Positions 6,139-38,267 of a DNA stretch of 38,267 bases are shown here, piece after piece. The first letter of the stretch is position 1; the number at the start of each line of letters is the position of its first letter. The translations under genes and the position numbers were made by a program. Origin of the DNA: a virus; IMG/VR virus record IMGVR_UViG_3300025896_000012, positions 1 through 38,267 of that record. The stretch is one strand, 5' to 3'. Below the pieces are notes generated by a model. It made no database searches. It saw nothing but the letters and a program-made list of their open reading frames with translations, and had not been told where the DNA came from.

Positions 6139-7358
6139 ACATAGGTGTACTAGGCGCTGGTAAGTTAGGATTGCCGGTAGCTTTAGCAATGGAGAGTAAA
6201 GGGCATACAGTACAAGTGTATGATGTCAATCCAGCCGTTGAAGGCTATTTTAATGGCGAACCATACCCACACCAAGAGGAGTATGTTGCAGATATGCTTC
6301 ACGACAGTCGAATCACTGTTGCTAAAAATGTGGGAGAGTTAGTTCTTGGTAAAGATATAGTATTCTGTGCTATTCAAACTCCCCACGAGCCAAGATTTGA
6401 AGGTACTACTCGACTGCCTGAAGATCGTGCAGATTTTGATTACACTTGGCTCAAAGACGCAGTAAGAGACGTAGTGGAAGCTTCAGACGGCAATACAACG
6501 CTTGCTGTTATAAGCACCTGTTTACCTGGCACATACGAGCGTGAAATAAAGCCTCTGTTATCAGATGATATTGATTATGTGTATAACCCACTTTATATAG
6601 CTATGGGAACAGTTATAGATGATTACTTGAACCCTGAATTTGTGCTTGTTGGTCAAGAAAGCCCTGAAGCGGCAGCTAAGCTACAAGAGTTTTACGGTAC
6701 TTTGCATGAAGCCCCTCATGTTGTGACAGATATCACAACGGCGGAAGGTATTAAAGTATCATACAATACATGGATCACCGCAAAAACAGTCCTTGCAAAC
6801 GCATGGGGCGAGATGTGTGAACGCATGGGAATGAATTTTGACGATATGTACAAAGCATGGACTCTTGCAAACCAACGCCTTATTAGCGCAAGGTATATGA
6901 AAGCTGGTAAATCTGACGGGGGTGGCTGCCATCCTAGAGATAATATAGCTATGTCTTGGCTCGCTGATGAGGCTGGTATGAGCCATAACATATGGGAAGA
7001 TTTAATGACAGCTAGAGAAGATTATGAAGATTGGCACGCTCGATTAGCTATCAAAGCAAGTAAAGAAAACGAGCTACCATTAGTTTTACTAGGTAAAAGC
7101 TTTAAACCAGAAACCAATATAGAGACTGGCTCGCCAGCTATACTTATGGCAAATATAATACGCAATGACTACGGTTACCCGATGCAACATCTTGATGAGC
7201 TAGACGGTATACCACAAAAAGCAGTCTACTTTATAGCCACACAGCACGAGAGGTATAAAGATATTCGTTTCCCCGTAGGTTCTATGGTGTATGATCCATT
7301 TAGATATATAGAAGATCAAGAGGGTGTTACAATTATTAGAATTGGTGGTAGAATATAA
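6135..7358 (+). CDS. Nucleotide-sugar dehydrogenase (UDP-glucose/GDP-mannose 6-dehydrogenase family)
   Basis: N-terminal Rossmann motif MNIGVLGAGKLGLPVALAM. Catalytic-Cys motif GGGCHPRD (family consensus GGxCxxKD). 407 aa. ATGA overlap with the upstream gene. Confidence 0.75.
   Translation: MNIGVLGAGKLGLPVALAMESKGHTVQVYDVNPAVEGYFNGEPYPHQEEYVADMLHDSRITVAKNVGELVLGKDIVFCAIQTPHEPRFEGTTRLPEDRADFDYTWLKDAVRDVVEASDGNTTLAVISTCLPGTYEREIKPLLSDDIDYVYNPLYIAMGTVIDDYLNPEFVLVGQESPEAAAKLQEFYGTLHEAPHVVTDITTAEGIKVSYNTWITAKTVLANAWGEMCERMGMNFDDMYKAWTLANQRLISARYMKAGKSDGGGCHPRDNIAMSWLADEAGMSHNIWEDLMTAREDYEDWHARLAIKASKENELPLVLLGKSFKPETNIETGSPAILMANIIRNDYGYPMQHLDELDGIPQKAVYFIATQHERYKDIRFPVGSMVYDPFRYIEDQEGVTIIRIGGRI
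7346..7354 (+). promoter_or_regulatory. Extended -10-like element TGgTAGAAT followed by the conserved AGGCGGG leader motif
   Basis: tTGgTAGAATataaacatacAGGCGGGCGAGGcactcgATG. Same layout as at 11391 and 32361. Confidence 0.35.
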
Positions 7359-7382
7359 ACATACAGGCGGGCGAGGCACTCG

Positions 7383-8024
7383 ATGGCTTACCAACTTAGC
7401 ACAATCGTATCTAAAGTTCAGCGCAGGATTAGAGATACTGGTTATTCTTCTTCTGAAATTACTGACTACATAAATGACACACAAAATGATGTGTTCAATG
7501 AGTACAAACTGCCGTTCATGCAAGCCACGCAAAACTACGCTACAGTAGCTAACGTGTCTGACTTAACTGATGGTTCTGGGCTGCCCACAAATTATGTTCA
7601 AGCTCTTGAAGTAACTAACTCAAGCAATAAAACACTTACATATTTTGATGTACGTGAACTTGATAATCTCAACACTAATAGCGAGACTAACCCCAGCGGT
7701 TGGTATTTCTTTGCAGATACAATCTATCTTTACCCTACCCCAACAAGCGTACAAACTTTGACTTTAAAGTATTATAAGAGACCTACAGAACTTACTGCAG
7801 ATGCTAGTGTGCCTGAAATACCAGCTGAATTTGAAGAACTACTTGTAGTAGGCGCTGCATATCGAGTAATGCAAGTTAAAGATAACTACGATCAAGCAGG
7901 AGTGCTACAGGCTAAATACGATGAAATTTTGCAGAAACTTGTTATGAAGTATAGTCGCCCACAAGTAGGTAAGCCATCTAATATGAGGATAAACCGCCGT
8001 GCCTTGGGCAAAACGAGTTACTAG
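7383..8024 (+). CDS. Virion structural protein, possibly head-tail adaptor
   Basis: 213-aa ORF opening the tail/neck block. Assigned by position only; no decisive motif. Confidence 0.45.
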   Translation: MAYQLSTIVSKVQRRIRDTGYSSSEITDYINDTQNDVFNEYKLPFMQATQNYATVANVSDLTDGSGLPTNYVQALEVTNSSNKTLTYFDVRELDNLNTNSETNPSGWYFFADTIYLYPTPTSVQTLTLKYYKRPTELTADASVPEIPAEFEELLVVGAAYRVMQVKDNYDQAGVLQAKYDEILQKLVMKYSRPQVGKPSNMRINRRALGKTSY

Positions 8025-24981: not shown

Positions 24982-25181
24982 TGTACGAACCAGCAACCGA
25001 ACAACAACGCCAACAAGAAGAAAACACCAAAATTCTTACAAGCCTCTACAAAGCAACCCTATTCGCAGTAATTGTATTTATTATCTGTTGGGTAGTTGGC
25101 CTAGCCGTATTCGTACAGACCATGAACCAAATAAAGTCTGACCGTAGTAAGTGTGTTAATTGGTGTGAAAGTAGATTATGA
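24981..25181 (+). CDS. Small membrane protein (66 aa)
   Basis: TM segment ATLFAVIVFIICWVVGLAVFV. TAATG overlap upstream and ATGA overlap downstream. Confidence 0.55.
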   Translation: MYEPATEQQRQQEENTKILTSLYKATLFAVIVFIICWVVGLAVFVQTMNQIKSDRSKCVNWCESRL

Positions 25182-25783
25182 AAATACTTAATCTATACGC
25201 TGGAATTGGCGGCAATCGCAAATTATGGGGGGATGGACATGAGATAACTGCTATTGAATCTGAACAGTACATCGCCGATATATACAAAGAAATGTATCCT
25301 AAAGATACCGTAATTGTCGCAGACGCTCACCAATACCTACTTGAGCACTACAAAGAGTACGACTTTATTTGGAGTTCACCACCATGCCCTACGCATTCAC
25401 GAATGAGGCTGTCACTAGTTAAAAGCAAACCTGTTTACCCAGATATGAAGCTATACGAAGAAATACTGTTTCTAAAGCACTTCTACAAAGGTGATTGGGT
25501 AGTCGAGAATGTTATCCCTTATTACAGACCGTTAATCGACCCTACAGCAGTGCTTGAACGTCATATGTTCTGGTCAAACTTTAATATCTCGGATGATTTT
25601 ACCCAGAAACGTATCTATAAAGGCCGAATAACTGACCAATCAAAAGAAACTCTTGCGGCACAATATGACATTAAACTACCAGAACACGCAAAAAACAAAC
25701 GTAAGCTATTGAGAAATGCCGTTATGCCACAACTCGGCTTACACGTATTCAAACAAAACATTCTAACCAAGGAGCAGCTATGA
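25178..25783 (+). CDS. Mini C5-cytosine-methyltransferase-like protein, copy A (201 aa)
   Basis: Motif I LYAGIGGN, motif IV SSPPCPTHS, motif VI VVENV and a motif X-like LLRNAVMP. Much shorter than canonical C5 MTases. Confidence 0.6.
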   Translation: MKILNLYAGIGGNRKLWGDGHEITAIESEQYIADIYKEMYPKDTVIVADAHQYLLEHYKEYDFIWSSPPCPTHSRMRLSLVKSKPVYPDMKLYEEILFLKHFYKGDWVVENVIPYYRPLIDPTAVLERHMFWSNFNISDDFTQKRIYKGRITDQSKETLAAQYDIKLPEHAKNKRKLLRNAVMPQLGLHVFKQNILTKEQL

Positions 25784-26166
25784 ATGAAGAACTAAAAACG
25801 AAGATAGAACAAATGTTATCCGATGACTTCGCTTGTACTAGAGTATGGGAAGCATGGCAAGTTGGAACAATGACGCAAGATGATTTTGTACAACTTAGCG
25901 AAACAGAACGAGTAGACGAACTCCTAGCCCTCTTTGAATCAGAAAAGGCTAAAGAAGTAGCAGAAGCACGAATAGACGAACTAAGGCTTGTAGATGCCGC
26001 TTACCATCATATTATCGAAATGAAGTCACCTGTTTCAGTCCAATCACTTGTCGATAACAATATTGAACACATTATACTTGACGACCCAAGAACGCAGAAT
26101 GATTTATTTAGGCATGTACAAGACCGTTTAGCCCAACTAACCAACAACCCAAAGGAGAATAAGTGA
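25780..26166 (+). CDS. Hypothetical acidic protein (128 aa)
   Basis: ATGA overlap with MTase A and a GGAG SD. No motif recognised. Confidence 0.55.
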   Translation: MNEELKTKIEQMLSDDFACTRVWEAWQVGTMTQDDFVQLSETERVDELLALFESEKAKEVAEARIDELRLVDAAYHHIIEMKSPVSVQSLVDNNIEHIILDDPRTQNDLFRHVQDRLAQLTNNPKENK

Positions 26167-26588
26167 TGAGTAAAACACCCATATTTGAACACACAGTAGG
26201 CTCTCATTCAGATGATAGAGGTGGTGACTCTGACAGGCGTTGTACTTGCCAAGATGAACCACATAGCCACCTAGATAATGATAAGGACTTGAGACAAGAA
26301 ATACTTTATGAATTTCTCAATCAATTCAAAGAAGATAAATATCTAAGCCAAAGCAACACTGATAAAGCAGTTGAAGCCATTGACCAGTATACCCAATCTA
26401 AGCTAAAAGCATTTGCAGGGGAGATTGAGGAAGCTATTGGTGAATATGAATATCCAGAGCAGCACTTTCCCACTGTTCTACAGGGTGAAAACATTGAAAA
26501 GTACGACAAAGTTACAGCTAGGGATAGGCTTAGAGCTGAACTCAGACAGGCTCTCAAAGCTATAAAGGAAAAGGCAGGTATAGAATGA
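26163..26588 (+). CDS. Hypothetical protein (141 aa; ATG at 26166)
   Basis: GGAG lies 8 nt upstream of ATG 26166. ATGA overlap into MTase B. Confidence 0.55.
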   Translation: MMSKTPIFEHTVGSHSDDRGGDSDRRCTCQDEPHSHLDNDKDLRQEILYEFLNQFKEDKYLSQSNTDKAVEAIDQYTQSKLKAFAGEIEEAIGEYEYPEQHFPTVLQGENIEKYDKVTARDRLRAELRQALKAIKEKAGIE

Positions 26589-27199
26589 AAATACTTAATC
26601 TTTACGCAGGTATTGGCGGCAATCGTAAACTGTGGGGTGATGAGCATGAAGTCTGGTCTGTTGAACTAAATTACGATATTTGGAATGTGTACCAAAAGAT
26701 GTTCCCAAAAGATATTGTTATTGGAAGTGAAGATGCACACGAGTACCTATTAAAGTTCTTTGCAGGTTTCGATTTTATATGGAGCTCCCCGCCATGCCCT
26801 AGTCATTCGAGAATGAGAAAGTCACTGACTAAAAGTCCTCTAGTATATCCAGATATGAAACTATATGAGGAGATAATTTTCTTGAAGCATTTTTGCAAAG
26901 TACCTTGGGTAGTCGAGAATGTAATACCCTACTATAAACCGCTTATAGAGCCAACAGCAACTATTGATAGGCACCATTTCTGGTCAAATTTTGAAATATC
27001 TAACATAGATATTGAACGACAATATAAAGGTAGAATCACTGACCAGAGCAAAGAAACTCTTGCGGCACAATATGGCATTGAGCTGCCAGATGGTACTAAA
27101 GACCAACGTAAGTTACTTAGAAATGCTGTTATGCCAGAGGTTGGTCTACACATATTAAACGAAGGTCAAAAGGCAGCAAGGAGTCGTGTTTATGGGTGA
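26585..27199 (+). CDS. Mini C5-cytosine-methyltransferase-like protein, copy B (204 aa)
   Basis: Same motifs as copy A (LYAGIGGN, SSPPCPSHS, VVENV, LLRNAVMP). Roughly two-thirds identical to copy A by eye, with long identical nucleotide runs. Confidence 0.6.
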   Translation: MKILNLYAGIGGNRKLWGDEHEVWSVELNYDIWNVYQKMFPKDIVIGSEDAHEYLLKFFAGFDFIWSSPPCPSHSRMRKSLTKSPLVYPDMKLYEEIIFLKHFCKVPWVVENVIPYYKPLIEPTATIDRHHFWSNFEISNIDIERQYKGRITDQSKETLAAQYGIELPDGTKDQRKLLRNAVMPEVGLHILNEGQKAARSRVYG

Positions 27200-27359
27200 A
27201 AAAGTAAAGTTTGATAAGTGCTGTATAAGAAAGTGCAAATATCTACCAGAAAGCATAAAGCTATTCGGACTAGACCTGTGTTTTATGCACCAGAAGAAGG
27301 TAGACAGTTGGCTGTTCGATAAGGGATACCATAAGTCTTTTTCTAAGGAGCAAAAGTAA
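27192..27359 (+). CDS. Small Cys-rich protein (55 aa)
   Basis: Hand-translated as MGEKVKFDKCCIRKCKYLPESIKLFGLDLCFMHQKKVDSWLFDKGYHKSFSKEQK. Overlaps MTase B by 8 nt, and its stop overlaps the next ATG (TAATG). Confidence 0.4.
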   Translation: MGEKVKFDKCCIRKCKYLPESIKLFGLDLCFMHQKKVDSWLFDKGYHKSFSKEQK

Positions 27360-27697
27360 TGCACACATCAAACACAGACCAAGAGAGTAAAGACAACAGC
27401 ATGGAGTGGTTATCGAAAGAGTTAGAAGCTTTAGCTGAAGGTTGGAGAAGTTGGACTCACGACCAACTAGACGGTACAAGCTTTATAAAAGACGAACTTG
27501 ACCAGATAGACAAGGTTAAGGCTGAAACAGAACAAGCCATACGCTCTCACCTACTAGCTGATGTAATGAGGGTGAAACCTAGTGGCCACGAAGTAGACCC
27601 AATAGGCAACCCCGACTATAGGTTCTGCAAAGGCTATAACCAAGCACTAGAAGAATGGGAGCAAGCATTTAATGAGCTATTAGGGGGAGATAAGTAA
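27359..27697 (+). CDS. Hypothetical acidic protein (112 aa)
   Basis: AAGGAG SD. TAATG overlap with the next gene. Confidence 0.55.
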   Translation: MHTSNTDQESKDNSMEWLSKELEALAEGWRSWTHDQLDGTSFIKDELDQIDKVKAETEQAIRSHLLADVMRVKPSGHEVDPIGNPDYRFCKGYNQALEEWEQAFNELLGGDK

Positions 27698-28806
27698 TGA
27701 AGATACTTGTAGCTTGTGAATACTCTGGTCGTGTCAGAGAAGCTTTTAGAAAGTTGGGGCATGACGCTTGGAGTTGCGACTTACTACCAAGCGATGACAA
27801 CAGCCCATACCACATACAAGGTGACGTGTTGGAGTTGCTTGATAAAGGTTGGGATATGATGATAGCTCACCCACCATGCACTTACCTGGCGAATAGTGGA
27901 GTGCAACATATGTGGGCTGGTCGTAAAAAAGAGAATGGCAAAAACGTGGCGTTAAAACTATATAACTATCCAAGCCACTTTTCAGACTATAAAGTTAGAA
28001 GAGAAAAATTCCTTAACGAACCAAAGATATTCGAGTTGTTAAAAGGACATGATCATGTTGTTGAAGCATTTGAGCCTGAGGCTACCACGAAGGCTAAATT
28101 GAACAGCGACCATGTTGAAATTGATTTCTACACAATGGAGTTAATGGCTGGAAACCTACAGAACTATCTCGAGAGCCATCCAGACGACTGGAAACTGGAA
28201 TCAAAATTAAAGGTTATTTCGCAAGTGTGTCTAGCACTAGAGCATTCGCACGAAAAGAGAATATTCCACCGAGATCTTTACACGGACAACATACTAGTAA
28301 AAGAAAAAAAAGAACCTCTACACGTTAAAGTTACCGATTATGGTGCAGCAAAAACTCCAAAAATTCCAATTAATACCGCATACGATTTTCTCCTGGGAGC
28401 TAGAAATATTTCTTCCCCAGAGGCCTTAGTTGGCCTAATTTCGGATGATGAAGGTTGGAAAAAGAATGACGTATTTGCCTTAGGTTTACTGATTTATCAC
28501 ATTATCAATAAAGCCCCAAGCTATACTCAGGTAGTACTTATGACCGCTGCACAAGTTACCACTAAAGATCCAAAAGTTAAAGAAGAACACTTAAAAAACA
28601 AGATATTGCCAATGATAAAAAATAATATGATAGTTCCTCTAGCAATTACTGAACTTGGAATTGAAGATGGGAAGAAAAGAAAGATAGAAGCAATCTTAAA
28701 CGACGTCTTTTTGGAAGCGACAAAACTCGATCCCAATGATCGTACTAGCGAAATAAGCTCTATTCGTACTAGAATGGAAGAGTGCTTAGGAGTCTTAAAT
28801 GCTTGA
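27697..28806 (+). CDS. Chimeric protein: N-terminal about 85 aa of a small phage MTase-like (PPCT) family fused to a Hanks-type protein kinase domain
   Basis: The N-terminus is MKILVACEYSGRVREAFRKLGHDAWSCDLLP...MIAHPPCTYLANSG. Kinase landmarks follow in order: VALK, EPKIFELL, FHRDLYTDNILV, VTDYGAAK, SSPEAL, DVFALGLLIY. Confidence 0.65.
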   Translation: MKILVACEYSGRVREAFRKLGHDAWSCDLLPSDDNSPYHIQGDVLELLDKGWDMMIAHPPCTYLANSGVQHMWAGRKKENGKNVALKLYNYPSHFSDYKVRREKFLNEPKIFELLKGHDHVVEAFEPEATTKAKLNSDHVEIDFYTMELMAGNLQNYLESHPDDWKLESKLKVISQVCLALEHSHEKRIFHRDLYTDNILVKEKKEPLHVKVTDYGAAKTPKIPINTAYDFLLGARNISSPEALVGLISDDEGWKKNDVFALGLLIYHIINKAPSYTQVVLMTAAQVTTKDPKVKEEHLKNKILPMIKNNMIVPLAITELGIEDGKKRKIEAILNDVFLEATKLDPNDRTSEISSIRTRMEECLGVLNA

Positions 28807-29938
28807 GACAATCAAGAAGCCCGATAACTTTGTAGGTGAAGCTCTAAAGAAAGAGGGGAATATTTTCCCTAATATTTCATATGCTCAACTATTTTCAAAA
28901 CAAGATGAACTAGAGCCACTTCAAAAATATCAAGACTTAAAAATAAACATCCCCAAAAAACGAGCGGTCACAATTGATTATTCACCCACCGTATTTAGAC
29001 AGCAGGTTAACTACTCATTGGAAAAATTGATTAATCAACCTAAGAACCCAATCATATTAAATGACTTAGGAATGACATATTTTGTTGTAGGTAAGCTGAC
29101 AAAAGCAATAAGATATTTTAAGGAAGCAATAATATCTGATCCTAATTTCTTAGCCGCTGCCCAGAACCTCGCTAAAGCGTATTTAGCGTATGGAAGAATA
29201 GACAAAGCAGTAGAAGTATATTCAGAATTCATCCTTAAAATGAGTTCAAACCCCGATTTAATTCATCAGTATGGAATTTTAATGATTACTATAGGCGATC
29301 TTCCAAAAGCAAAGAATAGTCTAAAACAAATTAGTAGTGATTATGTCAAATATTATGAAGTAACAAATACTCTCGGGCTGATTGAACTTTTGCAAAATAA
29401 CGATGATAACGCCAAGAATAAGTTTGAACAAACAATTGAATTAAATGATCAATATCCAGATGGGTTTAATAACCTGGGTGTAATTTATCTTAAGCGAAAT
29501 AAGTTCTCAAAAGCTCGTGAATTATTTACGAAGGCTTCTAGTGTAAATGAAAAATATAAAGATGGTTATGTTAATACTATTAATTCTTACCTACAAGAAG
29601 AAAAATCAAAAGAAGCCCTAGATTATATTGCCGACCTTAGTTCTGAGTTACAGAGCCATCCTGAAATAGCATTCAAAAAAGCATATATTTATATGCACGA
29701 GAAAGAATTCGAAAAATCTATAGAACTTTATAAAGAGATGGAGTCAAATAATCTTGGTTCTCCTGATGTTCTTAACAATATAGGGCACGCTTACGCATGC
29801 ACAGGTAATCCAGCCAAGCCAGAAGAAATAACCCGATTCCTTGAACTAGAGTTGATACTTATGCCAAGGTATCACTGGGTTAGAAGGCTACATTTAAGAG
29901 CGATTATTAAATATTGGAAAAGTGTTTACGACAAATGA
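28799..29938 (+). CDS. Tetratricopeptide (TPR) repeat protein
   Basis: 379 aa with about 7-8 34-residue units (e.g. LNDLGMTYFVVGKLTKAIRYFKEAIISDPNF, FNNLGVIYLKRNKFSKARELFTKASSVNEKY). The start overlaps the kinase stop by 8 nt. AT-rich relative to its neighbours. Confidence 0.7.
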   Translation: MLETIKKPDNFVGEALKKEGNIFPNISYAQLFSKQDELEPLQKYQDLKINIPKKRAVTIDYSPTVFRQQVNYSLEKLINQPKNPIILNDLGMTYFVVGKLTKAIRYFKEAIISDPNFLAAAQNLAKAYLAYGRIDKAVEVYSEFILKMSSNPDLIHQYGILMITIGDLPKAKNSLKQISSDYVKYYEVTNTLGLIELLQNNDDNAKNKFEQTIELNDQYPDGFNNLGVIYLKRNKFSKARELFTKASSVNEKYKDGYVNTINSYLQEEKSKEALDYIADLSSELQSHPEIAFKKAYIYMHEKEFEKSIELYKEMESNNLGSPDVLNNIGHAYACTGNPAKPEEITRFLELELILMPRYHWVRRLHLRAIIKYWKSVYDK

Positions 29939-30025
29939 ACAATCTAAAATGCTCAGTGTGTAATGAACCGAAACACTCGCTCGATGGCGACAGAACTACG
30001 TGTGGCTCATGCCTAAGAAAAGCCG

Positions 30026-30054
30026 GTTGACAAATAAACGGCTAGCAAGTATAC
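30026..30054 (+). promoter_or_regulatory. Early/middle promoter family member P4 (TTGACA-17-TATACT, GCTAGC in spacer)
   Basis: gTTGACAaataaacGGCTAGCaagTATACTgtagacc, then ATG 30062 only 7 nt after the -10 box. No SD is present. Confidence 0.6.
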
Positions 30055-30061
30055 TGTAGAC

Positions 30062-30499
30062 ATGAAGAAGATAATTCTAGCAACCGGTGCAGCACTATTA
30101 ACCCTCACAGGTGGCGTGTATGCGTTTAATCAACCAGAACCAACACAAGTACCCAGTGTGGTACAAACAGCACCAGAAGCCCCACAAGAACAGCCAGAAG
30201 CGTTAGAAACTCCTACGCCAGAACCTCAAGTAGTTACTACACCTACACCTCAAGCTGCACCAGTAGTTGTAGATACCTGTGCTCAAGACAAAGAAGCTAA
30301 CCTCCGTGATGTAAGGCTCAGACTTAGTTATACACAATCAGAAGCTGAACGTATTAGGGGTGAAGTACGTAAGTTGTACACAGATAAAGGCTTAGTTATC
30401 AACGAAGAATATGTTGAACGAGCTGCACTTGCTAAGTTTCCTTACCTAAAAGACCTAGAGAAGAACGTACGTGATCTAGAAGCTGGATATAATTGCTAA
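30062..30499 (+). CDS. Secreted or membrane-anchored protein with Pro/Gln/Glu-rich linker
   Basis: Signal-like MKKIILATGAALLTLTGGVYA, the linker QPEPTQVPSVVQTAPEAPQEQPEALETPTPEPQVVTTPTPQAAP, and a helical C-terminal domain of about 70 aa. Confidence 0.6.
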   Translation: MKKIILATGAALLTLTGGVYAFNQPEPTQVPSVVQTAPEAPQEQPEALETPTPEPQVVTTPTPQAAPVVVDTCAQDKEANLRDVRLRLSYTQSEAERIRGEVRKLYTDKGLVINEEYVERAALAKFPYLKDLEKNVRDLEAGYNC

Positions 30500-30504
30500 A
30501 ACCA

Positions 30505-30533
30505 TTGACAATATAACCTATCTGTGCTAATAT
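30505..30533 (+). promoter_or_regulatory. Strong sigma70-like promoter TTGACA-17-(TGc)TAATAT
   Basis: Consensus -35 at 30505-10, extended -10 TG at 30525-26, and -10 at 30528-33. Confidence 0.55.
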
Positions 30534-30568
30534 ATAAGCATGGGAATGATCGAAAGATTGCGTACCAT

Positions 30569-30662
30569 AAAGCACCCCAGTGTATCGGAACTCATCAGGA
30601 ACTTATAAGCCTGTGGCAGAACTGCCTTAAACGGAGTCCCATCTATGAAAAGGGTGCTTTTT
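30569..30662 (+). terminator. Long-range stem plus T5 between the promoter and the terminase genes (terminator/attenuator-like)
   Basis: aaagcaccc (30569-77) pairs perfectly with gggtgcttt (30652-60), followed by further Ts (tttt-t run 30658-62). The 74-nt interior contains small hairpins. Confidence 0.35.
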
Positions 30663-30682
30663 ACTTATGCTATACTAGGGGT

Positions 30683-31186
30683 ATGACTAAGGCAGAACTT
30701 AATAATGATGTTGGCGGTAGACCGACAAAGTATTCTCAGGAACTGGCAGACACTATATGTGAGCGTCTTGCAATAGGTGAATCTTTACGAACTGTGTGTA
30801 AACCAGATAGTATGCCCTCAGTGTCTACGATATTTAATTGGTTCAGATCACAAGAGGGGTTTTTGGAACAATACGAGAAGGCTAAGCAAGAATCTGCTGA
30901 TGCTATGGCTGAAGATATACTTGAGATTGCTGACAATCCACAGATGGGTGAAATACGCACTATAAAGCCTGACGGTTCTGTTGAAGTAAAGCAGGATGAG
31001 ATGTTAGGGCACAGAAGATTACAGATAGATACTCGCAAATTCTTAATGGCCAAGATGAAGCCTAAACGTTATGGCGATAGCCTGGATCTTACTACTAAGG
31101 GAGAAAAGCTACCAACACCGATATTAGGAGGGTTAGCCAAAGATGTATCAACTGACGACAGCAACGAAGAAACTATCAAAGCTTAA
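30683..31186 (+). CDS. terS: Terminase small subunit
   Basis: MTKAELNNDVGGRPTKYSQELADTICERLAIGESLRTVCKPDSMPSVSTIFNWF is the common TerS HTH N-terminus. The track start GTG 30524 sits inside the -10 box and lacks an SD. Confidence 0.7.
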   Translation: MTKAELNNDVGGRPTKYSQELADTICERLAIGESLRTVCKPDSMPSVSTIFNWFRSQEGFLEQYEKAKQESADAMAEDILEIADNPQMGEIRTIKPDGSVEVKQDEMLGHRRLQIDTRKFLMAKMKPKRYGDSLDLTTKGEKLPTPILGGLAKDVSTDDSNEETIKA

Positions 31187-32348
31187 GAGTCGAGTAAGAT
31201 TGGTTGCTGGTGGTACATCAGGTGGCAAGACTATTTCTATTGAGCAACTTTTGATTGATGACGGCCAGACAGATAAGAAGCCTACCCTCACATCTATAGT
31301 CTCTGAATCATTTCCTCACCTTAAACGTGGTGCTATGCGTGATTTCTTAGACATAATGCAGACACACGGGTATTTTGAAGATGCTCGTTGGAACAAAACT
31401 GACTATATCTACACTCTACCAAGCGGGAGTAAGATCGAGTTCTTTAGCGCTGACCAACCGAGTAAGGTGCGTGGGCCGAGGCGAGATAGATTGTTTTGTA
31501 ACGAGGTCAATAACATACCAAGAGAAGCCTGGGAACAACTATTGATTCGTACTAGAGAGTACGCTTGGGCTGACTGGAACCCCACATCAGATTTCTATTT
31601 GTATGAAGACTATGGGCTTGATGAAGAAGAACTCAAGACTAACTCATCTGATGCAGACTTTAGCATCCTGACGTACAAAGATAATGAAGCTTTAGAACAA
31701 GCTATTGTAGATGAAATTGAGCGCAGAGCAAATAACGTTAATTGGTTTAGGGTTTACGGCAAAGGGCTTCGGGGCGAAGTTGAAGGTAAGATCTACAAAG
31801 GTTGGAAGGTTGATCTTGATACCATCCCACACGAAGCACGCCTAGAACGCCGAGGGCTAGACTTCGGCTACTCTCAAGACCCAGCTGCACTTGTAGATGT
31901 GTATTACTACAATGGTGGGTATATCTTAGACGAACAGCTTTATCGTAAAGGCATGAGTAACAAGGCTATTGCAGACTTTGCGAACAACCTAGAGAAACCG
32001 AACACTACAATAGTGGCCGATAGTGCAGAGCCTAAGAGTATAGATGAACTCAAACTCTATAACATTGCTGTGCTACCGGCTCAAAAGGGTGCAGGGTCTA
32101 TTAACCAAGGTATCAACTTCATACAAGACCAGCAGATCAGTGTTACTAAACGCTCGGTGAACCTCATTAAAGAGTATCGGAATTACCTGTGGAAGACTGA
32201 TAAAGAAGGGCGCATCCTAGATATACCAGAAGGCGGGAATGACCACGCACTTGATGCAGTTCGTTATGCTCTTAGCTCATTCAATACTCGTACTGACATA
32301 AAAGCTTACAAACCAGCCAACATGGTTCGCCGAAAGAATAGACAATAA
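31143..32348 (+). CDS. terL: Terminase large subunit (compact, about 400 aa)
   Basis: Walker A VAGGTSGGKT, ATPase coupling region ADWNPTS, and C-terminal nuclease motif GNDHALDAVRYAL. Confidence 0.8.
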   Translation: MYQLTTATKKLSKLKSRVRLVAGGTSGGKTISIEQLLIDDGQTDKKPTLTSIVSESFPHLKRGAMRDFLDIMQTHGYFEDARWNKTDYIYTLPSGSKIEFFSADQPSKVRGPRRDRLFCNEVNNIPREAWEQLLIRTREYAWADWNPTSDFYLYEDYGLDEEELKTNSSDADFSILTYKDNEALEQAIVDEIERRANNVNWFRVYGKGLRGEVEGKIYKGWKVDLDTIPHEARLERRGLDFGYSQDPAALVDVYYYNGGYILDEQLYRKGMSNKAIADFANNLEKPNTTIVADSAEPKSIDELKLYNIAVLPAQKGAGSINQGINFIQDQQISVTKRSVNLIKEYRNYLWKTDKEGRILDIPEGGNDHALDAVRYALSSFNTRTDIKAYKPANMVRRKNRQ

Positions 32349-32360
32349 ACATAAGTAATG

Positions 32361-32369
32361 TGGTATAAT
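32361..32369 (+). promoter_or_regulatory. Extended -10 element TGgTATAAT followed by the AGGCAGG leader motif
   Basis: aaTGTGGTATAATcacgatagactAGGCAGGTCGAGactcttcaGTG. Confidence 0.4.
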
Positions 32370-32400
32370 CACGATAGACTAGGCAGGTCGAGACTCTTCA

Positions 32401-34395
32401 GTGGCTAAAAAAGCACCAAAAACTGTTAAAAATCCGACCAAAGCAAAAAAAGAATCTGCGAAGTATGCAGATCAAGAGCTTGTAGACAAAGTAGTAGGTA
32501 TGTTCCAACAATCATGGGACTATGTATCAGGCTCATGGCATCAACGCTGGGAAGACAACTACAACCTCTACAATAACGAACGTGTGAAGCGTGGCTATGA
32601 TGGTATCACCGATACATTCGTACCTATGACATTCTCGACTATTGAGACTATGACATCTGCGCTATTCGGCACTAAACCTAAGTTTGCGTACACTCCGCCT
32701 AAAGAGAAACCAGACCAAGAAACCGACATATTGAACTCGTTACTTGACTATTATTGGGATAAAGACCAGTGGAGTATCAAGTTCATTACGTGGGGGCGAG
32801 GGTTCTTACGTGAGGGCACATCAGTCGTATATCTGTATTGGGATGGTAACTGCCCTAAGCTTATCAACGTACCTATTCGTGACTTTATCATCGACCCTAC
32901 ATTCAACGGTGAAGGTAAACCTAAGTTCATAGGCCGTCGTTACCTCACTACCAAAGAAGAACTTGAAAGCTTTGAGATCGTTGACCTAGAGGATGGTATG
33001 GAAGCCACCACAGAGGGTAAAGACCACGAGAAGAAAGAATCTAAGACCGAAGAAGCAACAGAAGATTCTAAAGAACCTAAGATGCGTAAGAAGTATAAGG
33101 ATCTCGATAAGCTCGGCATCTACAACTCTGACAAAACCACCGACAAAGAGATTAAAGATATGTGGTATGGCTCTACCCTCGATACTCCCGAAGAAAACCA
33201 AGTAGAAGTTATTGAGATGTGGTACTTCGACCCTGAATCTGGTGAAGATCGTGTTGTATCGGTAGCTAATCGTTGTTGCATTATTGAGAATGTAGAGAAC
33301 TGGTATAAGACTAAAGCCCGTGACAACGGTGAAGAATACCCACAGGCTATTAACCCATTCGCATGGTTGCGTGATTATGTAGATGGCTCACTGTTCTATG
33401 CTAAGAGTGAAGTTGACTTTATATCTGACCAGCAAGAACTACTCAACGACCTTACTAACCAGAACATCGACTCTATCACGTACACATTAAACCAGATGTA
33501 CACACTTGACCCTAAATATGCTCACATGATTGACGAAGTAGAGAACTTACCTGGTGCTGTCTATCCATTTGAAGCTGGTACACTCCAACCTATACCTATG
33601 GGCAACGTGCCTCAAGACGCATTTAATGAACGGCTTAACATCAAGAGTGAAATGCGTGAGACTACAGCATCAAACGAGATCGTTAAAGGTGTTGGTGCTG
33701 AAGGTGGATCTATCACAGCCACAGAAGTTAACGCTCAAATAGCTGGTGCTGGTCAACGTATCGGCCTTAAGATCACCCAGATAGAAGATGAAGGGTTCCA
33801 CAAGCTCGCACAGATCGTATTCGCTATGGTTCGTCTTTACGTCAACGAGCCTATGATGGTACGCATTATCGGTAAAGATGGTATACGCTGGGAAGAATTT
33901 GATCCTAAACAGTTTAAAGATGGGGACTACGAACCACGAGTACAGCTTGAAACTTCTGTCAACAGCCAAAAAGCACAAGACGCTGAGAGCGCTAAAGAGC
34001 TGCTTGCTGGGTTCCTTAACGATCCTGGTGTAAATCAAGAAGAACTTAAGAAGATGGTATTTAGAAAATCATTTGATCTCGATCCTGATGAAATCGAACT
34101 ACTTATTGCCCCACAACTACCACCAGAAATGGGGGGTATGCCTACAGATATGCCAATTGATCCTATGGCTGGCGGTGTTCCACCTGTAGACCCAGCGATG
34201 CTAGCTCCTGTGCCTATGCCCCCTGAGATGGCTGCACCGCCAGAACTTGCACTCCCACCAATGGAGCAACCACTTGCTGAGGCTACACAAGAACAGATAA
34301 TCGAAGCGGTTATCGACCCTCTTACCGGCCAACTCGTGCCACTTGACCCAGCCGTTGCTGATGAACTAGCGCTCTTACAGGGTGGTGTACTATGA
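32401..34395 (+). CDS. Portal protein
   Basis: 664 aa immediately after TerL, with a GTG start. Size and position are typical of portals. Acidic insert at about residues 195-245 and a Pro/Met-rich C-terminal tail. Confidence 0.6.
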   Translation: MAKKAPKTVKNPTKAKKESAKYADQELVDKVVGMFQQSWDYVSGSWHQRWEDNYNLYNNERVKRGYDGITDTFVPMTFSTIETMTSALFGTKPKFAYTPPKEKPDQETDILNSLLDYYWDKDQWSIKFITWGRGFLREGTSVVYLYWDGNCPKLINVPIRDFIIDPTFNGEGKPKFIGRRYLTTKEELESFEIVDLEDGMEATTEGKDHEKKESKTEEATEDSKEPKMRKKYKDLDKLGIYNSDKTTDKEIKDMWYGSTLDTPEENQVEVIEMWYFDPESGEDRVVSVANRCCIIENVENWYKTKARDNGEEYPQAINPFAWLRDYVDGSLFYAKSEVDFISDQQELLNDLTNQNIDSITYTLNQMYTLDPKYAHMIDEVENLPGAVYPFEAGTLQPIPMGNVPQDAFNERLNIKSEMRETTASNEIVKGVGAEGGSITATEVNAQIAGAGQRIGLKITQIEDEGFHKLAQIVFAMVRLYVNEPMMVRIIGKDGIRWEEFDPKQFKDGDYEPRVQLETSVNSQKAQDAESAKELLAGFLNDPGVNQEELKKMVFRKSFDLDPDEIELLIAPQLPPEMGGMPTDMPIDPMAGGVPPVDPAMLAPVPMPPEMAAPPELALPPMEQPLAEATQEQIIEAVIDPLTGQLVPLDPAVADELALLQGGVL

Positions 34396-34610
34396 GCGCA
34401 CTAGGCAAATCTTACAAAGCATTCTTTGAAGATACCGAAGCTGGTAAACTATTTATGCAAAACTTAACCGTTATGATAAGCTCTAAACATGAGCAGTCTG
34501 AGAAGAACCCCGAATCTGCTAGAGACAACAGCCAACAAGCCTACGGCATTCGTGAGGTAGAGAACTACATTAAAACTGCAATGGCAGGGAAGGGAGGCAA
34601 ACCTAAATAG
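34392..34610 (+). CDS. Small head-module protein (72 aa)
   Basis: ATGA overlap with the portal stop. Confidence 0.5.
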   Translation: MSALGKSYKAFFEDTEAGKLFMQNLTVMISSKHEQSEKNPESARDNSQQAYGIREVENYIKTAMAGKGGKPK

Positions 34611-34717
34611 TCGTCACTCCGTAAAGGGAAGCGGGTCTAAATTTTATAAATTTAACACCCTGCCTGGTGCACTCGCTTCTCTTTATGGGCAGGGGACTAA
34701 CTAAAAGGAAGGATGTA

Positions 34718-35440
34718 ATGGAAGAACCAACCACAACTCCAGTCGTAGTAGATTATGGCGCTCAAGCAGCACAACCAGCAGATACCACACCAACTGTAGC
34801 GGTAGACGATACCACTGCACCTGTAGAGCAATCTACACCCAACGAGGGAGAGCCAAGCACGCCTAGTGAACCCGTCGCTGAATCAGACGACGACAAGCTC
34901 GCTAAATGGGCGCAAGCTAAAGGCCTTGAACTCGACAGTGAAAACGCTAAGAAAGCGGCTAAGATGGCTCGTGAAGCTGAAAAAGCAATGCACAGCAAAG
35001 CACAGAAAGCAAGCGAACTAGAAAAAGACCTCTCAGCTACGTCTGATGTTATAGCCGAAGAAATAGCAAGTACAACAGGCCAAGATCCTGAACTTCTCAA
35101 ACGTGTACAACGTATGGAAGTCAAATCAGCCGTACAAGACTTTTGGAATCAAAACCCAGAGGCTCGACAACACGAAGCTGCTATGATTCAGGAACTACAA
35201 GCTAAACCTCACTTAGCTGGTGATCTCGAATCACTCTATGCGAACGTATTAGTAAAGTCTGGAAGTATAAACGCTGTTAAGTCCCAGGCGAAGCAAGAAA
35301 CCTTGCAGAACCTAGCCCAGAAACAACAAGCTGCCGTACCCGCTGGTAACGCCACCGTTTCTGGAACACCGAAGCCTAAAGCTTTTGCTGAAAAATCTAT
35401 CGCTGAGATGGAAGCGGAACTTGGATTTGCCAAAGTATAG
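34718..35440 (+). CDS. Scaffolding protein
   Basis: AAGGAAGG SD precedes ATG 34718 (track start 34667 is upstream). Acidic T/P-rich N-terminus, then a long A/K/E/Q-rich helical region. Lies immediately upstream of the capsid gene. Confidence 0.55.
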   Translation: MEEPTTTPVVVDYGAQAAQPADTTPTVAVDDTTAPVEQSTPNEGEPSTPSEPVAESDDDKLAKWAQAKGLELDSENAKKAAKMAREAEKAMHSKAQKASELEKDLSATSDVIAEEIASTTGQDPELLKRVQRMEVKSAVQDFWNQNPEARQHEAAMIQELQAKPHLAGDLESLYANVLVKSGSINAVKSQAKQETLQNLAQKQQAAVPAGNATVSGTPKPKAFAEKSIAEMEAELGFAKV

Positions 35441-35471
35441 TAGCTCTTAATAATTAAATTGGAGCATTATC

Positions 35472-36410
35472 ATGTCTGCACAGACTACTTCTAGCCTTAG
35501 TCAAGAAATGTCTACTTACTACGAAAAGGTTTTCCTTGCTCGTGCTGAGTACGAATATATCTTTAACCAGGGCGCACAAATGCGTACACAGCCAGCTAAC
35601 GAAGGTAAAAGCGTTGTATTTACTCGCCACACCCCACTAGCTACTGCTACGACTGCACTTACAGAGGGTGTAAACCCTGCTGAAGTCAACCTTACAGCTA
35701 CTAACGTAACAGCTACACTTGCTGAATACGGTAACACTGTTAAGATTTCACGATTCTTGGATCTCACATCAATTGACCGAAACAACAAAGAGAAAATCGA
35801 AGTTGTTGGTCAAAACATGGGTGAAACACTTGATGAAATCACTCGAAACGAATTGTTTACTGGTGCTACAACTCAGTTAGCTGGTGGTAAATCTGCCCTT
35901 ACTGACGTTGCTATCACTGACGTACTCAGCGTTGCTGAACTACGAAAAGCAGTTCGTACTCTTAAGCTAAACAAAGCACGTCGCTACCAAGACCGTGTTG
36001 CTCCTTGGATGGGTAAAGTTGGCCCTAACACCAGCTACGACCTAACCACTGATAGCACGTTCCTATCTGCCGACATTTACGATAACGGAGCTGAAAAGCT
36101 TTACAATGGTGAATTAGGTAAGATCTTAGGTGTTCGACTAATCGAAAGCCCTGCTCAATACGAGGCTGTTAATGCCGGTACTTCAAACGCCGACATCTTC
36201 TCAAACTTCGTACATGGTGCAGACGCATTTGGTTGTATCGACCTTATGGGCGACAAGCCACAACTGTACATCATCCCTCACACTAAGATTGACTCTGGTA
36301 ACCCAGCTGGTCGATTCTCACTAGTGTCATGGGCTGCTTCTTATGTCACTAAGACGCTTAACAGCTCTTGGTTAATTGACATCAAGACTGGTGCAACAGG
36401 CCAAACCTAA
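35472..36410 (+). CDS. Major capsid protein (HK97-fold type)
   Basis: 312 aa following the scaffold, with a TGGAGC SD-like element. The N-terminal pattern YYEKVFLARAEYEYIF...GKSVVFTRHTPL...LTEGVNP...ATLAEYGNTVKIS resembles capsid families. A hairpin follows the stop. Confidence 0.65.
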   Translation: MSAQTTSSLSQEMSTYYEKVFLARAEYEYIFNQGAQMRTQPANEGKSVVFTRHTPLATATTALTEGVNPAEVNLTATNVTATLAEYGNTVKISRFLDLTSIDRNNKEKIEVVGQNMGETLDEITRNELFTGATTQLAGGKSALTDVAITDVLSVAELRKAVRTLKLNKARRYQDRVAPWMGKVGPNTSYDLTTDSTFLSADIYDNGAEKLYNGELGKILGVRLIESPAQYEAVNAGTSNADIFSNFVHGADAFGCIDLMGDKPQLYIIPHTKIDSGNPAGRFSLVSWAASYVTKTLNSSWLIDIKTGATGQT

Positions 36411-36423
36411 GCCTTAGCTTAAG

Positions 36424-36432
36424 TGGTATACT
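36424..36432 (+). promoter_or_regulatory. Extended -10-like element TGgTATACT followed by a GC hairpin
   Basis: aagTGgTATACTgggggtagggcaacttgcccccaacc (ggggg/ccccc stem). Confidence 0.3.
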
Positions 36433-36475
36433 GGGGGTAGGGCAACTTGCCCCCAACCAATTAAAAGGAGCAATT

Positions 36476-36541
36476 ATGGCTAAAGTAGCTACAAAGAAAA
36501 TGAAAAAGTGTTCAAAATGTGGTGGTAAAGGCGTTTGCTAA
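36476..36541 (+). CDS. 21-aa Lys/Cys-rich peptide
   Basis: AAAGGAG lies 7 nt upstream. Hand-translated as MAKVATKKMKKCSKCGGKGVC. The stop abuts the next ATG. Confidence 0.3.
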   Translation: MAKVATKKMKKCSKCGGKGVC

Positions 36542-36751
36542 ATGGTAAAGAAGCCAACTATTAACACAACAGAAAATGTAGGCGAACGCCCATCAACAGC
36601 GCCAGCCAAAGAAGTTAAACAAACAGACGAACAGAAAATGTACTCGCTATATGTACAGGGTAGAAACATTCAATCTATTGCAGATGAATACAAAGTTGAA
36701 GCCCAAGCAGTAGTAGAGGTTATACAGTCAACCGAAAGTAAAAGGAAGTAA
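36542..36751 (+). CDS. Small HTH-like protein (69 aa)
   Basis: LYVQGRNIQSIADEYKVEAQAVVEVI is HTH-like. Paralogous in pattern to the next gene. Confidence 0.5.
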   Translation: MVKKPTINTTENVGERPSTAPAKEVKQTDEQKMYSLYVQGRNIQSIADEYKVEAQAVVEVIQSTESKRK

Positions 36752-36753
36752 TT

Positions 36754-36984
36754 ATGGATGATAGCACCAGGGAAAAAATCATCGGCCACTACCAACGTGG
36801 GCAGGGTTCGATTCAAGACATAGCACGTGTATATAACGTATCAGTAGCAGAGGTATTACGTGTTACTGGCAACAATGATCTAGCTACAGTAACGCTAGGC
36901 GGTGATCTCATAGATCAGAGTGAAGCTGGTAACTCACCAATAAACTACGGCGAGAATATACCTGTACCTTTTACGGTGAACTAA
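36754..36984 (+). CDS. Small HTH-like protein (76 aa)
   Basis: HYQRGQGSIQDIARVYNVSVAEVLRV has the same pattern as the previous gene. Confidence 0.5.
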   Translation: MDDSTREKIIGHYQRGQGSIQDIARVYNVSVAEVLRVTGNNDLATVTLGGDLIDQSEAGNSPINYGENIPVPFTVN

Positions 36985-36985
36985 T

Positions 36986-37234
36986 ATGTACGGTAGAACT
37001 GGCGATCTTGAAAAGCTAAACAAAGATAGAAACGATCAAAGCTTGCCAAAGATTGTACGACAGCGTGCAGATCAAGCTCACCAAACCATTGTGGCGCAAC
37101 TCAAAGATAAAAAGCTCATGGGCCTAAGAGAGCAGCTTATAAACGCAGCAAGAGCAAACGACCTAGAAGCGCAACATAAAATACAAATACAGATGCGAGA
37201 ACATACAGGCGAAGATAAGGAAACTGGACAATGA
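36986..37234 (+). CDS. Hypothetical head-module protein (82 aa)
   Basis: Tightly packed charged helical ORF. Confidence 0.5.
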   Translation: MYGRTGDLEKLNKDRNDQSLPKIVRQRADQAHQTIVAQLKDKKLMGLREQLINAARANDLEAQHKIQIQMREHTGEDKETGQ

Positions 37235-37623
37235 GCGTATTTAGAGAAGCCGACACATCTACCCCCACCCCGACTGCACCAAAAGATGCGGCCATTGTAG
37301 ACGCTGGATCACCTGTTGAAACTCACGCACCCGAACTTCTCGCCACTTACCGTGATGATATGGGCAAGCCTTACGTTGCTGAATACCTAGACGTTACTAA
37401 CGTGTGGGATCAGGACAAAACATTGCAGCGTGATGTTGAGGAGATTGAGGGTTACTTACAAGAGCAAGTCAAGAATGGCGTTTTAGATAACTCTACCAGA
37501 GCTGGCAAAGAGTTTTTAAAGCAACTAGAACGTGATGCTGGACTTACTCGCTACGAAAGCGGTGCAAACAGAATACAGAAGTTATTAGCCTACATAGACT
37601 TTAAAAGGGTTGTCAACTCATGA
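37231..37623 (+). CDS. Hypothetical head-module protein (130 aa)
   Basis: ATGA overlaps on both sides. Confidence 0.5.
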   Translation: MSVFREADTSTPTPTAPKDAAIVDAGSPVETHAPELLATYRDDMGKPYVAEYLDVTNVWDQDKTLQRDVEEIEGYLQEQVKNGVLDNSTRAGKEFLKQLERDAGLTRYESGANRIQKLLAYIDFKRVVNS

Positions 37624-38030
37624 GTGCGCCTAACAAATCTGGGTCTAAGTACGTTTGGACTGATCAAGAGCGTGATAATAACTCTCATGATGATAAATGG
37701 GGTGTGAATGCTGTTGAGCTAGTGGGTGAAAATGCTACCGGCACTGCATTAAATAGAGTGGTTGTTAACGATAGCGGTGCATTCAGCACAGCGTCAACGC
37801 CACCGAAATCTAGCGATGAGTACGGTATTAACGCAATCTCTGAAGATGCAACGTATAAGTATTTCTGGTTCGAGGCGGATGACCTCGACTACTACATCAT
37901 GCGTAAGAACAAAACTACCTCTGTGTTTACTTTTACTAAAGGTACTGGAGGCTATACGTCTGTGTATATAAATGAAACATCAGGCCCAACAGGTTCACCA
38001 ACATGGGGCACAAGAGGGGCTACGTTTTAA
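37620..38030 (+). CDS. Hypothetical head/neck-module protein (136 aa)
   Basis: ORF within the operon; beta-rich composition. Confidence 0.5.
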   Translation: MSAPNKSGSKYVWTDQERDNNSHDDKWGVNAVELVGENATGTALNRVVVNDSGAFSTASTPPKSSDEYGINAISEDATYKYFWFEADDLDYYIMRKNKTTSVFTFTKGTGGYTSVYINETSGPTGSPTWGTRGATF

Positions 38031-38043
38031 TTAAGGAGACACT

Positions 38044-38262
38044 ATGAGAGCTAAAATCACAACAAAATCAGAACTAACATTAAACCTAAGTCAACACTTT
38101 ACATTTGACATCTTGGATGATGACGGCAATACAGTCCTCACTAGCCAGACAGTAGAATGCTCACCAAGCAACGCTGTAGCAGAAATAGCTGCAAAACTAC
38201 AAGCTTACCAGGCGGAATATGAAAAAAGTCAAGATTTAGAAGTAGGAATGGAGATTAGCTAG
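38044..38262 (+). CDS. Hypothetical protein (72 aa) immediately upstream of the tail spike on the circular map
   Basis: AAGGAG lies 6 nt upstream. Its 3' part is also present at 1..122 because of the terminal overlap. Confidence 0.55.
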   Translation: MRAKITTKSELTLNLSQHFTFDILDDDGNTVLTSQTVECSPSNAVAEIAAKLQAYQAEYEKSQDLEVGMEIS

Positions 38263-38267
38263 TGGCA
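38141..38267. repeat. Second copy of the 127-bp terminal overlap
   Basis: Identical to 1..127. It carries the 3' end of CDS 38044..38262 and the first bases of the tail spike gene. Confidence 0.9.

Follow-up and report, generated by a model that had tools for sequence, protein, structure and literature searches.

A phage methyltransferase gene joined in frame to part of a Hanks-type kinase and TPR operon: a probable product of illegitimate recombination

The stretch of DNA analysed here (the window) is the whole of IMG/VR virus record IMGVR_UViG_3300025896_000012, 38,267 nucleotides (nt) in length, in which a methyltransferase (MTase) gene runs in frame into a gene for a Hanks-type protein kinase, followed by a gene for a tetratricopeptide repeat (TPR) protein. 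Positions 1-190 of the window are repeated exactly at 38078-38267, and this 190-nt terminal repeat therefore identifies the sequence as a closed (circular or terminally redundant), complete phage genome of ~38,077 bp. An earlier note, made from the sequence without database searches, had described the locus as a phage-borne sensor-kinase module in which a chimera of an MTase N-terminus and a kinase is coupled to the TPR gene. Its account of the open reading frames (ORFs), of their 8-nt overlap, of the MTase-like start and of seven to eight TPRs agrees with our own.

Gene layout of the chimeric locus

The elements of the locus are given below. P0003 is an intact MTase, P0002 an intact kinase, L018 a syntenic phage and L004 a locus that carries intact relatives of both the kinase and the TPR gene.

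27697..28806, + strand: chimeric ORF of 369 amino acids (aa), MTase remnant (residues 1-84) fused in frame to kinase residues 85-369
27697..27946, + strand: 5′ third of a small C5-MTase-like gene (phrog_757 family, ~205-215 aa), assigned by identity to P0003 and to the MTase of L018
27937..27949, + strand: 5′ recombination junction, with imperfect microhomology GGnAAnnAnG (amino acids GK(N/D)) in a base-by-base three-way comparison
27947..28806, + strand: part of a Hanks-type kinase that starts at β3 (VALK), keeps the native C-terminus (…LNA) and shares 76% identity with P0002 residues 60-345
28799..29938, + strand: second ORF, TPR protein of 379 aa
28799..29818, + strand: TPR gene fragment, residues 1-340 of a protein that has 566-578 aa in intact operons
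29797..29820, + strand: 3′ recombination junction; nucleotide homology to L004 ends at 29796 and protein homology at residue ~340
29819..29938, + strand: 39-codon foreign tail of the TPR ORF (EEITRFLELELILMPRYHWVRRLHLRAIIKYWKSVYDK and stop), of low model confidence
29935..30030, + strand: 31-aa ORF with two CxxC motifs (MNNLKCSVCNEPKHSLDGDRTTCGSCLRKAG), predicted coding; the phage backbone resumes here after the cassette

The first 84 residues of the chimera match the PHROGs family phrog_757 (DNA-MTase) with an E-value of 1e-26 over profile positions 15-106 of 247. The intact 215-aa MTase P0003 shares 99% amino acid identity with the window over residues 1-84, after which the two diverge (…GRKKENGKN/EERWKLMEEG…); its locus (L005, 6740-6992) is 81% identical to the MTase part of the window at the nucleotide level, and the intact MTase of the syntenic phage L018 is 92% identical to the remnant at the amino acid level. 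Alignment with P0003-P0005 places the N-terminal motifs VACEYSG and PPCT (the latter with the catalytic Cys) in the remnant, which lacks two things that every full-length member has, the ENP motif (motif VI-like) and a C-terminal half of ~120 aa, a loss of ~60% of the protein. No frame of the window encodes this half, and tblastn of three full-length MTases against the window finds residues 1-85 only. Among phrog_757 members, cyanophage 9515-10a gp12, Arthrobacter phage Arielagos gp20 and a Microcystis phage Mae-JY04 protein are 58-64% identical to window residues 1-84 and have the MK[IV]LVACEYSG…HPPCT motifs in common with them. Unlike these proteins, the window retains the first ~40% only, the ENP motif and the C-terminal half being replaced by the kinase.

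Window 27697-27948 and L005 6740-6992 encode the same residue at 83 of 84 positions at 81% nucleotide identity. Synonymous sites are saturated in this comparison, which makes dN/dS uninformative; the pattern implies that the N-terminal 84 residues of this MTase family may be under unusually strong constraint across phages. Two further MTase-like genes, paralogues of each other that encode ~200-aa C5-MTase-like proteins, are located at 25178-25783 and 26585-27199 (MKILNLYAGIGGNRKLWG…SSPPCP; phrog_363). They belong to a different family from the disrupted gene, giving three MTase-like genes within 2.6 kb, and match Pfam DNA_methylase over its N-terminal part only (the first ~77 of 324 profile positions).

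The remainder of the chimera is a kinase. Residues 75-288 match Pfam Pkinase (PF00069) with an E-value of 1.9e-23 and 83.6 bits, against a cutoff of 31.7, so that the two profile matches bear out the chimera as first described. The catalytic landmarks that had been listed are likewise present in order, at family-invariant columns: the Lys of VALK (K87), the αC Glu (E108), the Asp of HRD (D193), N198, the Asp of DYG (D214) and the Glu of SSPE (E242). The Pkinase match covers profile positions 18-209 of 263, that is, without β1, the glycine-rich loop (G-loop) and β2. Subdomain I (β1/GxGxxG/β2) is missing from the chimera, since the residues 5′ of V85 are homologous to the MTase and not to a kinase, and the junction, which the earlier note had put where the kinase N-lobe should begin, lies exactly at the start of β3. 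The intact 345-aa kinase P0002 is 76% identical to the window from …IKSGKD/VALKLYNYP… to the C-terminus, and its own 59-residue N-terminus holds the canonical G-loop GAGAGGFTTIY (IGAGAGGFTTIY). The window kinase is without these residues 1-59 (β1, G-loop, β2), and a kinase N-terminus is encoded nowhere else in the window.

The AlphaFold2 (AF2) model of the chimera, with a predicted local distance difference test score (pLDDT) of 86.7, has the same boundaries. Residues 1-58 form a partial Rossmann-like β/α unit, residues 59-76 fall below pLDDT 50 and are the stretch of lowest confidence, and the kinase begins at β3 (residues 82-88) and continues into αC, β4 and β5, the β1-β2 hairpin being absent. 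A Foldseek search with this model retrieved the PknB and JAK kinase domains (E ~1e-12).

A word-indexed search of 5.8 billion proteins identified P0001, which is the window chimera itself, as the single fusion of an MTase N-terminus to a kinase, and an exhaustive search with HMMER, covering 1.84 billion cluster representatives, found no further one. The latter search did recover four more full-length relatives of the kinase (P0253-P0256; 33-41% identical, 341-346 aa). Against phages, tblastn of the chimera returned MTase-only or kinase-only matches, none covering >=80% of the query; megablast of window 25000-32400 against GenBank phages gave no match, and nothing was returned by scans of IMG/VR in which the queries were the kinase, the 112-aa gene upstream and the 145-aa gene downstream.

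The six members of the kinase family (P0001, P0002, P0253-P0256) have a conserved helical C-terminal extension of ~80 aa, which ends in …LNA in four of them, and all five intact close members share GxGxxGF, VALK, HRDLY(T/S/L)xN, D(F/Y)G and SSPE. The catalytic-loop Lys (HRDLKxxN) is absent from the chimera, which reads HRDLYTDN. A Tyr is kept at this position in 6/6 close family members (HRDLY[T/S/L]xN), and a distant kinase from locus L008 reads HRDLKPEN. On this alignment the Tyr characterises the entire kinase family, and the Y-T-D remarked on earlier is no peculiarity of the chimera. Because Tyr replaces the catalytic-loop Lys family-wide, the substrate class of the family (Ser/Thr, Tyr or non-protein) is uncertain. 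None of the named kinases of NCBIfam (Stk1/PknB-PASTA, MAD6, PglW, LegK1) is reached, best scores being 75-81 bits against cutoffs of 450-990. A scan of 185,579 species-representative genomes in GTDB with the kinase-family alignment returned generic kinases of 24-26% identity and no close family member; since these matches are generic, no host or donor can be inferred from them.

The TPR protein matches many TPR Pfam families and is 72% identical to the L004 TPR protein over residues 1-340 by tblastn (68% in a MAFFT alignment). Its structure model has a disordered N-terminus of ~58 aa, seven complete TPR hairpins and a truncated eighth, the second helix of which is modelled from low-confidence tail sequence. 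The conserved C-terminal ~238 of 578 residues are missing from the window protein, which carries 39 unrelated residues instead; this C-terminal region of ~240 aa is collinear and conserved in all intact copies and is encoded nowhere else in the window. No homologues of the 39-aa tail were found. Since the stop codon of the tail overlaps the start of the small ORF that follows (ATGA), the tail probably represents the last in-frame codons of a phage gene that has been lost. A word-indexed search with the L004 TPR protein returned mostly generic TPR proteins, among which P0134 alone was informative; the 379-aa window protein, 68% identical to this query, was not returned, an apparent gap in the index.

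Blastn delimits the two sources of the locus: MTase homology (L005) spans 27697-27949 and kinase-operon homology (L004) 27937-29796, with an overlap of ~13 nt. The breakpoint falls at ~27946/27947, between codons N84 and V85; this position may be off by a few nt, as L004 and L005 are only related to the actual parents. The cassette between the junctions (27947-29800) has a GC content of 0.347 compared with 0.417±0.021 for 650 windows of the same size (z=-3.4), which is the minimum of the genome and confirms the GC trough reported for this region; in 3-mer distance, too, the cassette ranks in the top 2%. At the junction GC falls from 0.456 in the MTase part to 0.372 in the kinase part; it is 0.329 in the TPR gene and back to backbone level shortly after the 3′ junction. 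No transposon-like direct or inverted repeats above chance were detected at the cassette borders.

Two other contigs, L006 (ENA k141_1282135) and L007 (JGI Ga0075464_10001442), are 100% identical to the window across both junctions, and both end at window coordinate 38077. L006 is 100% identical to window 26545-38077 and carries unrelated genes upstream (L006 1-1197, corresponding to the window upstream of 26534). This boundary, just before the second MTase paralogue, is evidence for what would be a very recent mosaic exchange among co-circulating phages. The TPR protein is a called gene on both L006 and L007, with no Pfam hit on record there.

The intact operon and the phage backbone

Relatives of the kinase and TPR genes occur elsewhere as an intact pair. 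In L004 the gene for a 345-aa kinase overlaps that for a 578-aa TPR protein downstream by the same 8 nt as in the window, where the overlap spans 28799..28806 on the + strand (ATGCTTGA); the same overlap, AAATGCTTGA, is found in L004, L010 and L011. The other pairs are as follows.

L013: kinase of 346 aa and TPR protein of 576 aa
L014: kinase of 342 aa and TPR protein of 572 aa
L010 and L011: kinase of 341 aa and a partial TPR orthologue
L008 (distant pair): kinase of 367 aa and TPR protein of 566 aa

A gene for a 566-578-aa TPR protein is located 3′ of the kinase wherever downstream sequence exists. The 8-nt overlap in the window is, by this comparison, native, and the two genes are predicted to be translationally coupled. 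As the earlier note had suggested might be found, kinase-TPR neighbours thus recur at all these loci, in mobile-element and defence-island contexts: the L004 pair sits between two large serine recombinases, near a ParB-MTase; the L014 pair adjoins a type IV secretion system (T4SS) conjugation cluster, a PLD protein and a Fic protein; and the L008 pair adjoins a helix-turn-helix (HTH) gene, AbiGi and an integrase. The L004 pair (4662-7428) has a GC content of 0.367 compared with 0.425 for the rest of L004, and has the look of cargo gained by horizontal transfer. Conserved but very rare, the intact operon appears restricted to mobile elements.

The module shows weak similarity to PDC-M71, a candidate defence system in PADLOC. 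The kinases match PDC-M71A with E-values of 2e-12 to 3e-14, the window kinase doing so partially (2.4e-12, profile positions ~117-297), and the adjacent TPR genes match PDC-M71B (window 9.2e-9, L004 2.5e-18, L008 1e-21). PDC-M71 likewise consists of two genes, a kinase and a TPR protein, with profiles of 352 and 515 positions compared with 345 and 578 aa in L004, and it shares the mobile-element and defence-island contexts. Unlike the match seen in the intact relatives, that of the window copy is without the N-terminus of component A, and the window TPR protein lacks the region that best matches PDC-M71B in those relatives (profile 350-493). The kinases score better against the generic defence kinases MAD6 and PD-T4-6 than against PDC-M71A. 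A literature search found no paper mentioning PDC-M71; the DefensePredictor paper deals with HipA-type kinases, not with this kinase-TPR module.

Several anti-phage kinases have the same Hanks-type catalytic domain as the window kinase, which matches PD-T4-6 (2e-27), mad6 of MADS (1.5e-22), Stk2 (1e-15) and PglW of BREX (4e-12). It also matches MAD6 and PglW in NCBIfam, without coming near the equivalog cutoffs (60-81 bits compared with 450-990). These single-protein kinases have other domain architectures and no separate TPR partner, and the kinase-TPR family differs from them in the Tyr that stands for the catalytic-loop Lys (HRDLY[T/S]xN). The likeness to T7 gp0.7, which is also a phage-encoded protein kinase expressed with the early genes, is conceptual only, and gp0.7 is not part of a kinase-TPR operon. 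The module is a rare new addition to the kinase-TPR candidate defence modules.

On the phage side, none of 80 IMG/VR relatives found through TerL (54-70% identity) carries the kinase or the TPR gene. In L018 (TerL 68% identical) the MTase at this position is intact, with 206 aa, and downstream of it lie three small ORFs and then terS, terL and the portal gene. Homology between L018 and the window breaks off at MTase residue ~84 and is found again from terL onwards, and the region from the MTase to terS is therefore regarded as a hypervariable accessory slot. Together with the low GC content of the cassette, the intact MTase of L018 at this site supports the proposal made earlier that a separately acquired cassette landed in a third MTase-like gene.

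Origin and probable fate of the fused genes

We consider it very probable, from the anatomy of the two junctions and the relatives of both parents, that the locus arose through one illegitimate recombination event at the level of microhomology. An internal 1.87-kb fragment of a foreign low-GC two-gene operon would have entered a ~38-kb tailed phage, replacing the 3′ ~60% of a small phage C5-MTase-like gene plus some stretch downstream. The donor operon, PDC-M71-like and carried on integrative or conjugative elements, would have consisted of a gene for a ~345-aa Hanks kinase and, coupled to it in translation, one for a TPR protein of ~575 aa. The 5′ crossover would have joined MTase codon 84 in frame to β3 of the kinase, and the 3′ crossover would have cut the TPR gene after codon ~340 and added 39 unrelated codons. 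The module that resulted, in the hypervariable stretch that separates the early genes from terS, is most likely a passenger without function.

This origin bears on the organised sensor-kinase module of novel fused architecture that the earlier note had proposed. The window holds an internal fragment of an operon in which all three genes are truncated, and this does not fit such a module; the fused architecture is indeed unique to one genotype in the databases searched, but as the by-product of one illegitimate recombination event. The MTase remnant would be unable to methylate, because the ENP motif and the whole C-terminal half are missing. The β1/Gly-rich-loop/β2 hairpin clamps ATP in every Hanks kinase, and since this hairpin is present in all relatives and missing here, the window kinase is, on general knowledge of kinases, most likely catalytically dead or severely impaired. 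Without its conserved C-terminal 40%, the TPR partner would be crippled as well. Both ORFs are probably still expressed, because the MTase start, its ribosome site and the native kinase/TPR coupling have been inherited: the chimeric ORF starts within the stop of the upstream ORF (TAATG), with a GGGGGAG Shine-Dalgarno-like site ~8 nt 5′. The event is most likely recent, judging from a sequence that exhibits neither amelioration nor decay.

That the scar is functionally inert is a reading to which we incline by a small degree, and the explanation as a whole, a recent recombination product including its inertness, we regard as reasonably probable. Several observations weigh against it. There is no sign of decay: the two reading frames run uninterrupted through 2.2 kb, no family-invariant kinase residue has been lost, and relative-rate tests against the intact L004 copies reveal no excess of window-specific substitutions (9-12 compared with 6-13 for the kinase, 14-19 compared with 8-17 for the TPR gene). 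The MTase remnant differs from P0003 at one of 84 residues even though synonymous sites are saturated (pS 0.77). Both junctions appear in frame, for which the chance expectation is ~1/9, translational coupling is kept at three successive gene boundaries, the last of them the ATGA overlap between the TPR ORF and the next small ORF, and the fusion is present in two mosaic backgrounds, given that L006 differs from the window upstream of 26534. Moreover, 2.2 kb of dead DNA would be unexpected in a 38-kb phage unless the event was very recent. The signals from intact ORFs, substitution rates and constraint are equally compatible with recency and with continued selection, which are inseparable because a single genotype is available.

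Continued selection is the core of an alternative that we consider unlikely, though deserving of attention, in which the truncated pair is retained as a dominant-negative decoy, an anti-defence device that forms inactive hetero-complexes with an intact kinase-TPR module of the host and keeps it from being activated. The device would consist of the kinase-dead body and the first two-thirds of the TPR protein, and the phage would by truncation have turned a defence operon that it captured into that operon's own inhibitor. The intact operon resembles both components of PDC-M71 and occurs in the mobile contexts described above (AbiGi and an integrase in L008, a T4SS/ICE (integrative/conjugative element) cluster in L014, serine recombinases in L004). 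What has gone from the window is the ATP clamp and the TPR C-terminal region; still present are the kinase C-lobe and the helical extension at its C-terminus, the native coupling of the two genes and the conserved N-terminal part of the TPR protein, a division that would suit a decoy. Intact ORFs, unaccelerated rates, in-frame junctions and occurrence in two mosaic backgrounds all point the same way, as does a location in a typical accessory-gene slot upstream of terS. However, no paper was found on PDC-M71, the GTDB representatives contain no close kinase-family member that would document a cognate host system, the fusion is carried by one genotype only, and the apparent signals of selection are equally explained by recency.

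It is more doubtful still that the chimera is a functional new kinase, in which the MTase N-terminus substitutes for β1, the G-loop and β2, or adds a nucleotide- or DNA-binding module, to give a phage-borne sensor-kinase with its TPR partner that acts in host takeover or superinfection exclusion. All catalytic residues but the G-loop are present, the AF2 model is confident for the kinase core, and the MTase remnant supplies a partial Rossmann-type β/α unit with a Gly/Ser-bearing segment (LANSGVQHMWAG) just before β3; phage-encoded Hanks kinases do exist (phrog_2361, and the kinase-only tblastn matches in phages). Yet the would-be substitute for the G-loop, residues 59-76, is modelled at pLDDT <50 and is homologous to the MTase catalytic loop rather than to any kinase. 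Truncation of the TPR partner would be needless in a designed module, no second example was found in any database searched, and the junction is positioned where a random crossover at the GK(N/D) microhomology would put it.

An assembly or gene-calling artefact, such as a chimeric contig joining a phage to an unrelated element, might be suspected from the metagenomic origin of the data, the abrupt change in GC and the unique gene combination, but its chance is negligible and we reject it, because the same sequence is 100% identical over both junctions in L006 and L007, two contigs from different assemblies, one of them with a different upstream background, while the cassette has phage backbone on both sides within one self-closing contig and the junction microhomology of ~10 nt is far below assembler k-mer sizes.

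The recombination origin that we favour is in keeping with the way in which tailed-phage genomes evolve, since mosaicism through illegitimate recombination and the acquisition of morons are both established. The locus has the expected attributes: a new joint formed where only a few bases match, an insert of foreign DNA low in GC, and a site at a module boundary upstream of terS. Surviving phage joints are usually located at gene boundaries, whereas here the joints are inside genes on both sides and have produced two in-frame hybrid ORFs. Intragenic joints are rarely seen, as such products are normally purged. With relatives of both parents, a syntenic 'before' state and both junctions identifiable, the locus represents a reconstructable case of mosaicism making hybrid genes, even if the fusion is a single genotype and probably inert. 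It has also revealed a very rare module of two genes, for a ~345-aa Hanks kinase and a coupled ~575-aa TPR protein, as a candidate anti-phage system. If the truncated copies do prove to be under selection, they would suggest that defence genes, once captured, can be turned in a simple way into dominant-negative anti-defence genes.

Genes between the cassette and the terminase

The 31-aa ORF at which the backbone resumes encodes a putative zinc ribbon, in view of its two CxxC motifs, and has no homologues in GenBank phages. A scan for promoters and terminators remained at background level, with one notable site, TTGACA-17-TATACT at 30027-30055. This near-consensus promoter-like sequence precedes the gene for a 145-aa protein (30062-30499), directly 5′ of terS. 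The N-terminus of the protein (MKKIILATGAALLTLTGG…) resembles a signal peptide or that of a lipoprotein, its C-terminal domain contains Cys, and the linker is rich in Pro, Glu and Thr. A scan of IMG/VR and JGI metagenomes returned no relatives of this protein, which could, from its predicted features, be a superinfection-exclusion or surface moron. The terS ORF itself (30524-31186) is listed with a GTG start, as 220 aa; gene calling gave 167 aa in L006 and 220 aa in L007, so that its true start is uncertain, and the Sf6-type terminase small-subunit domain occupies residues 70-188.

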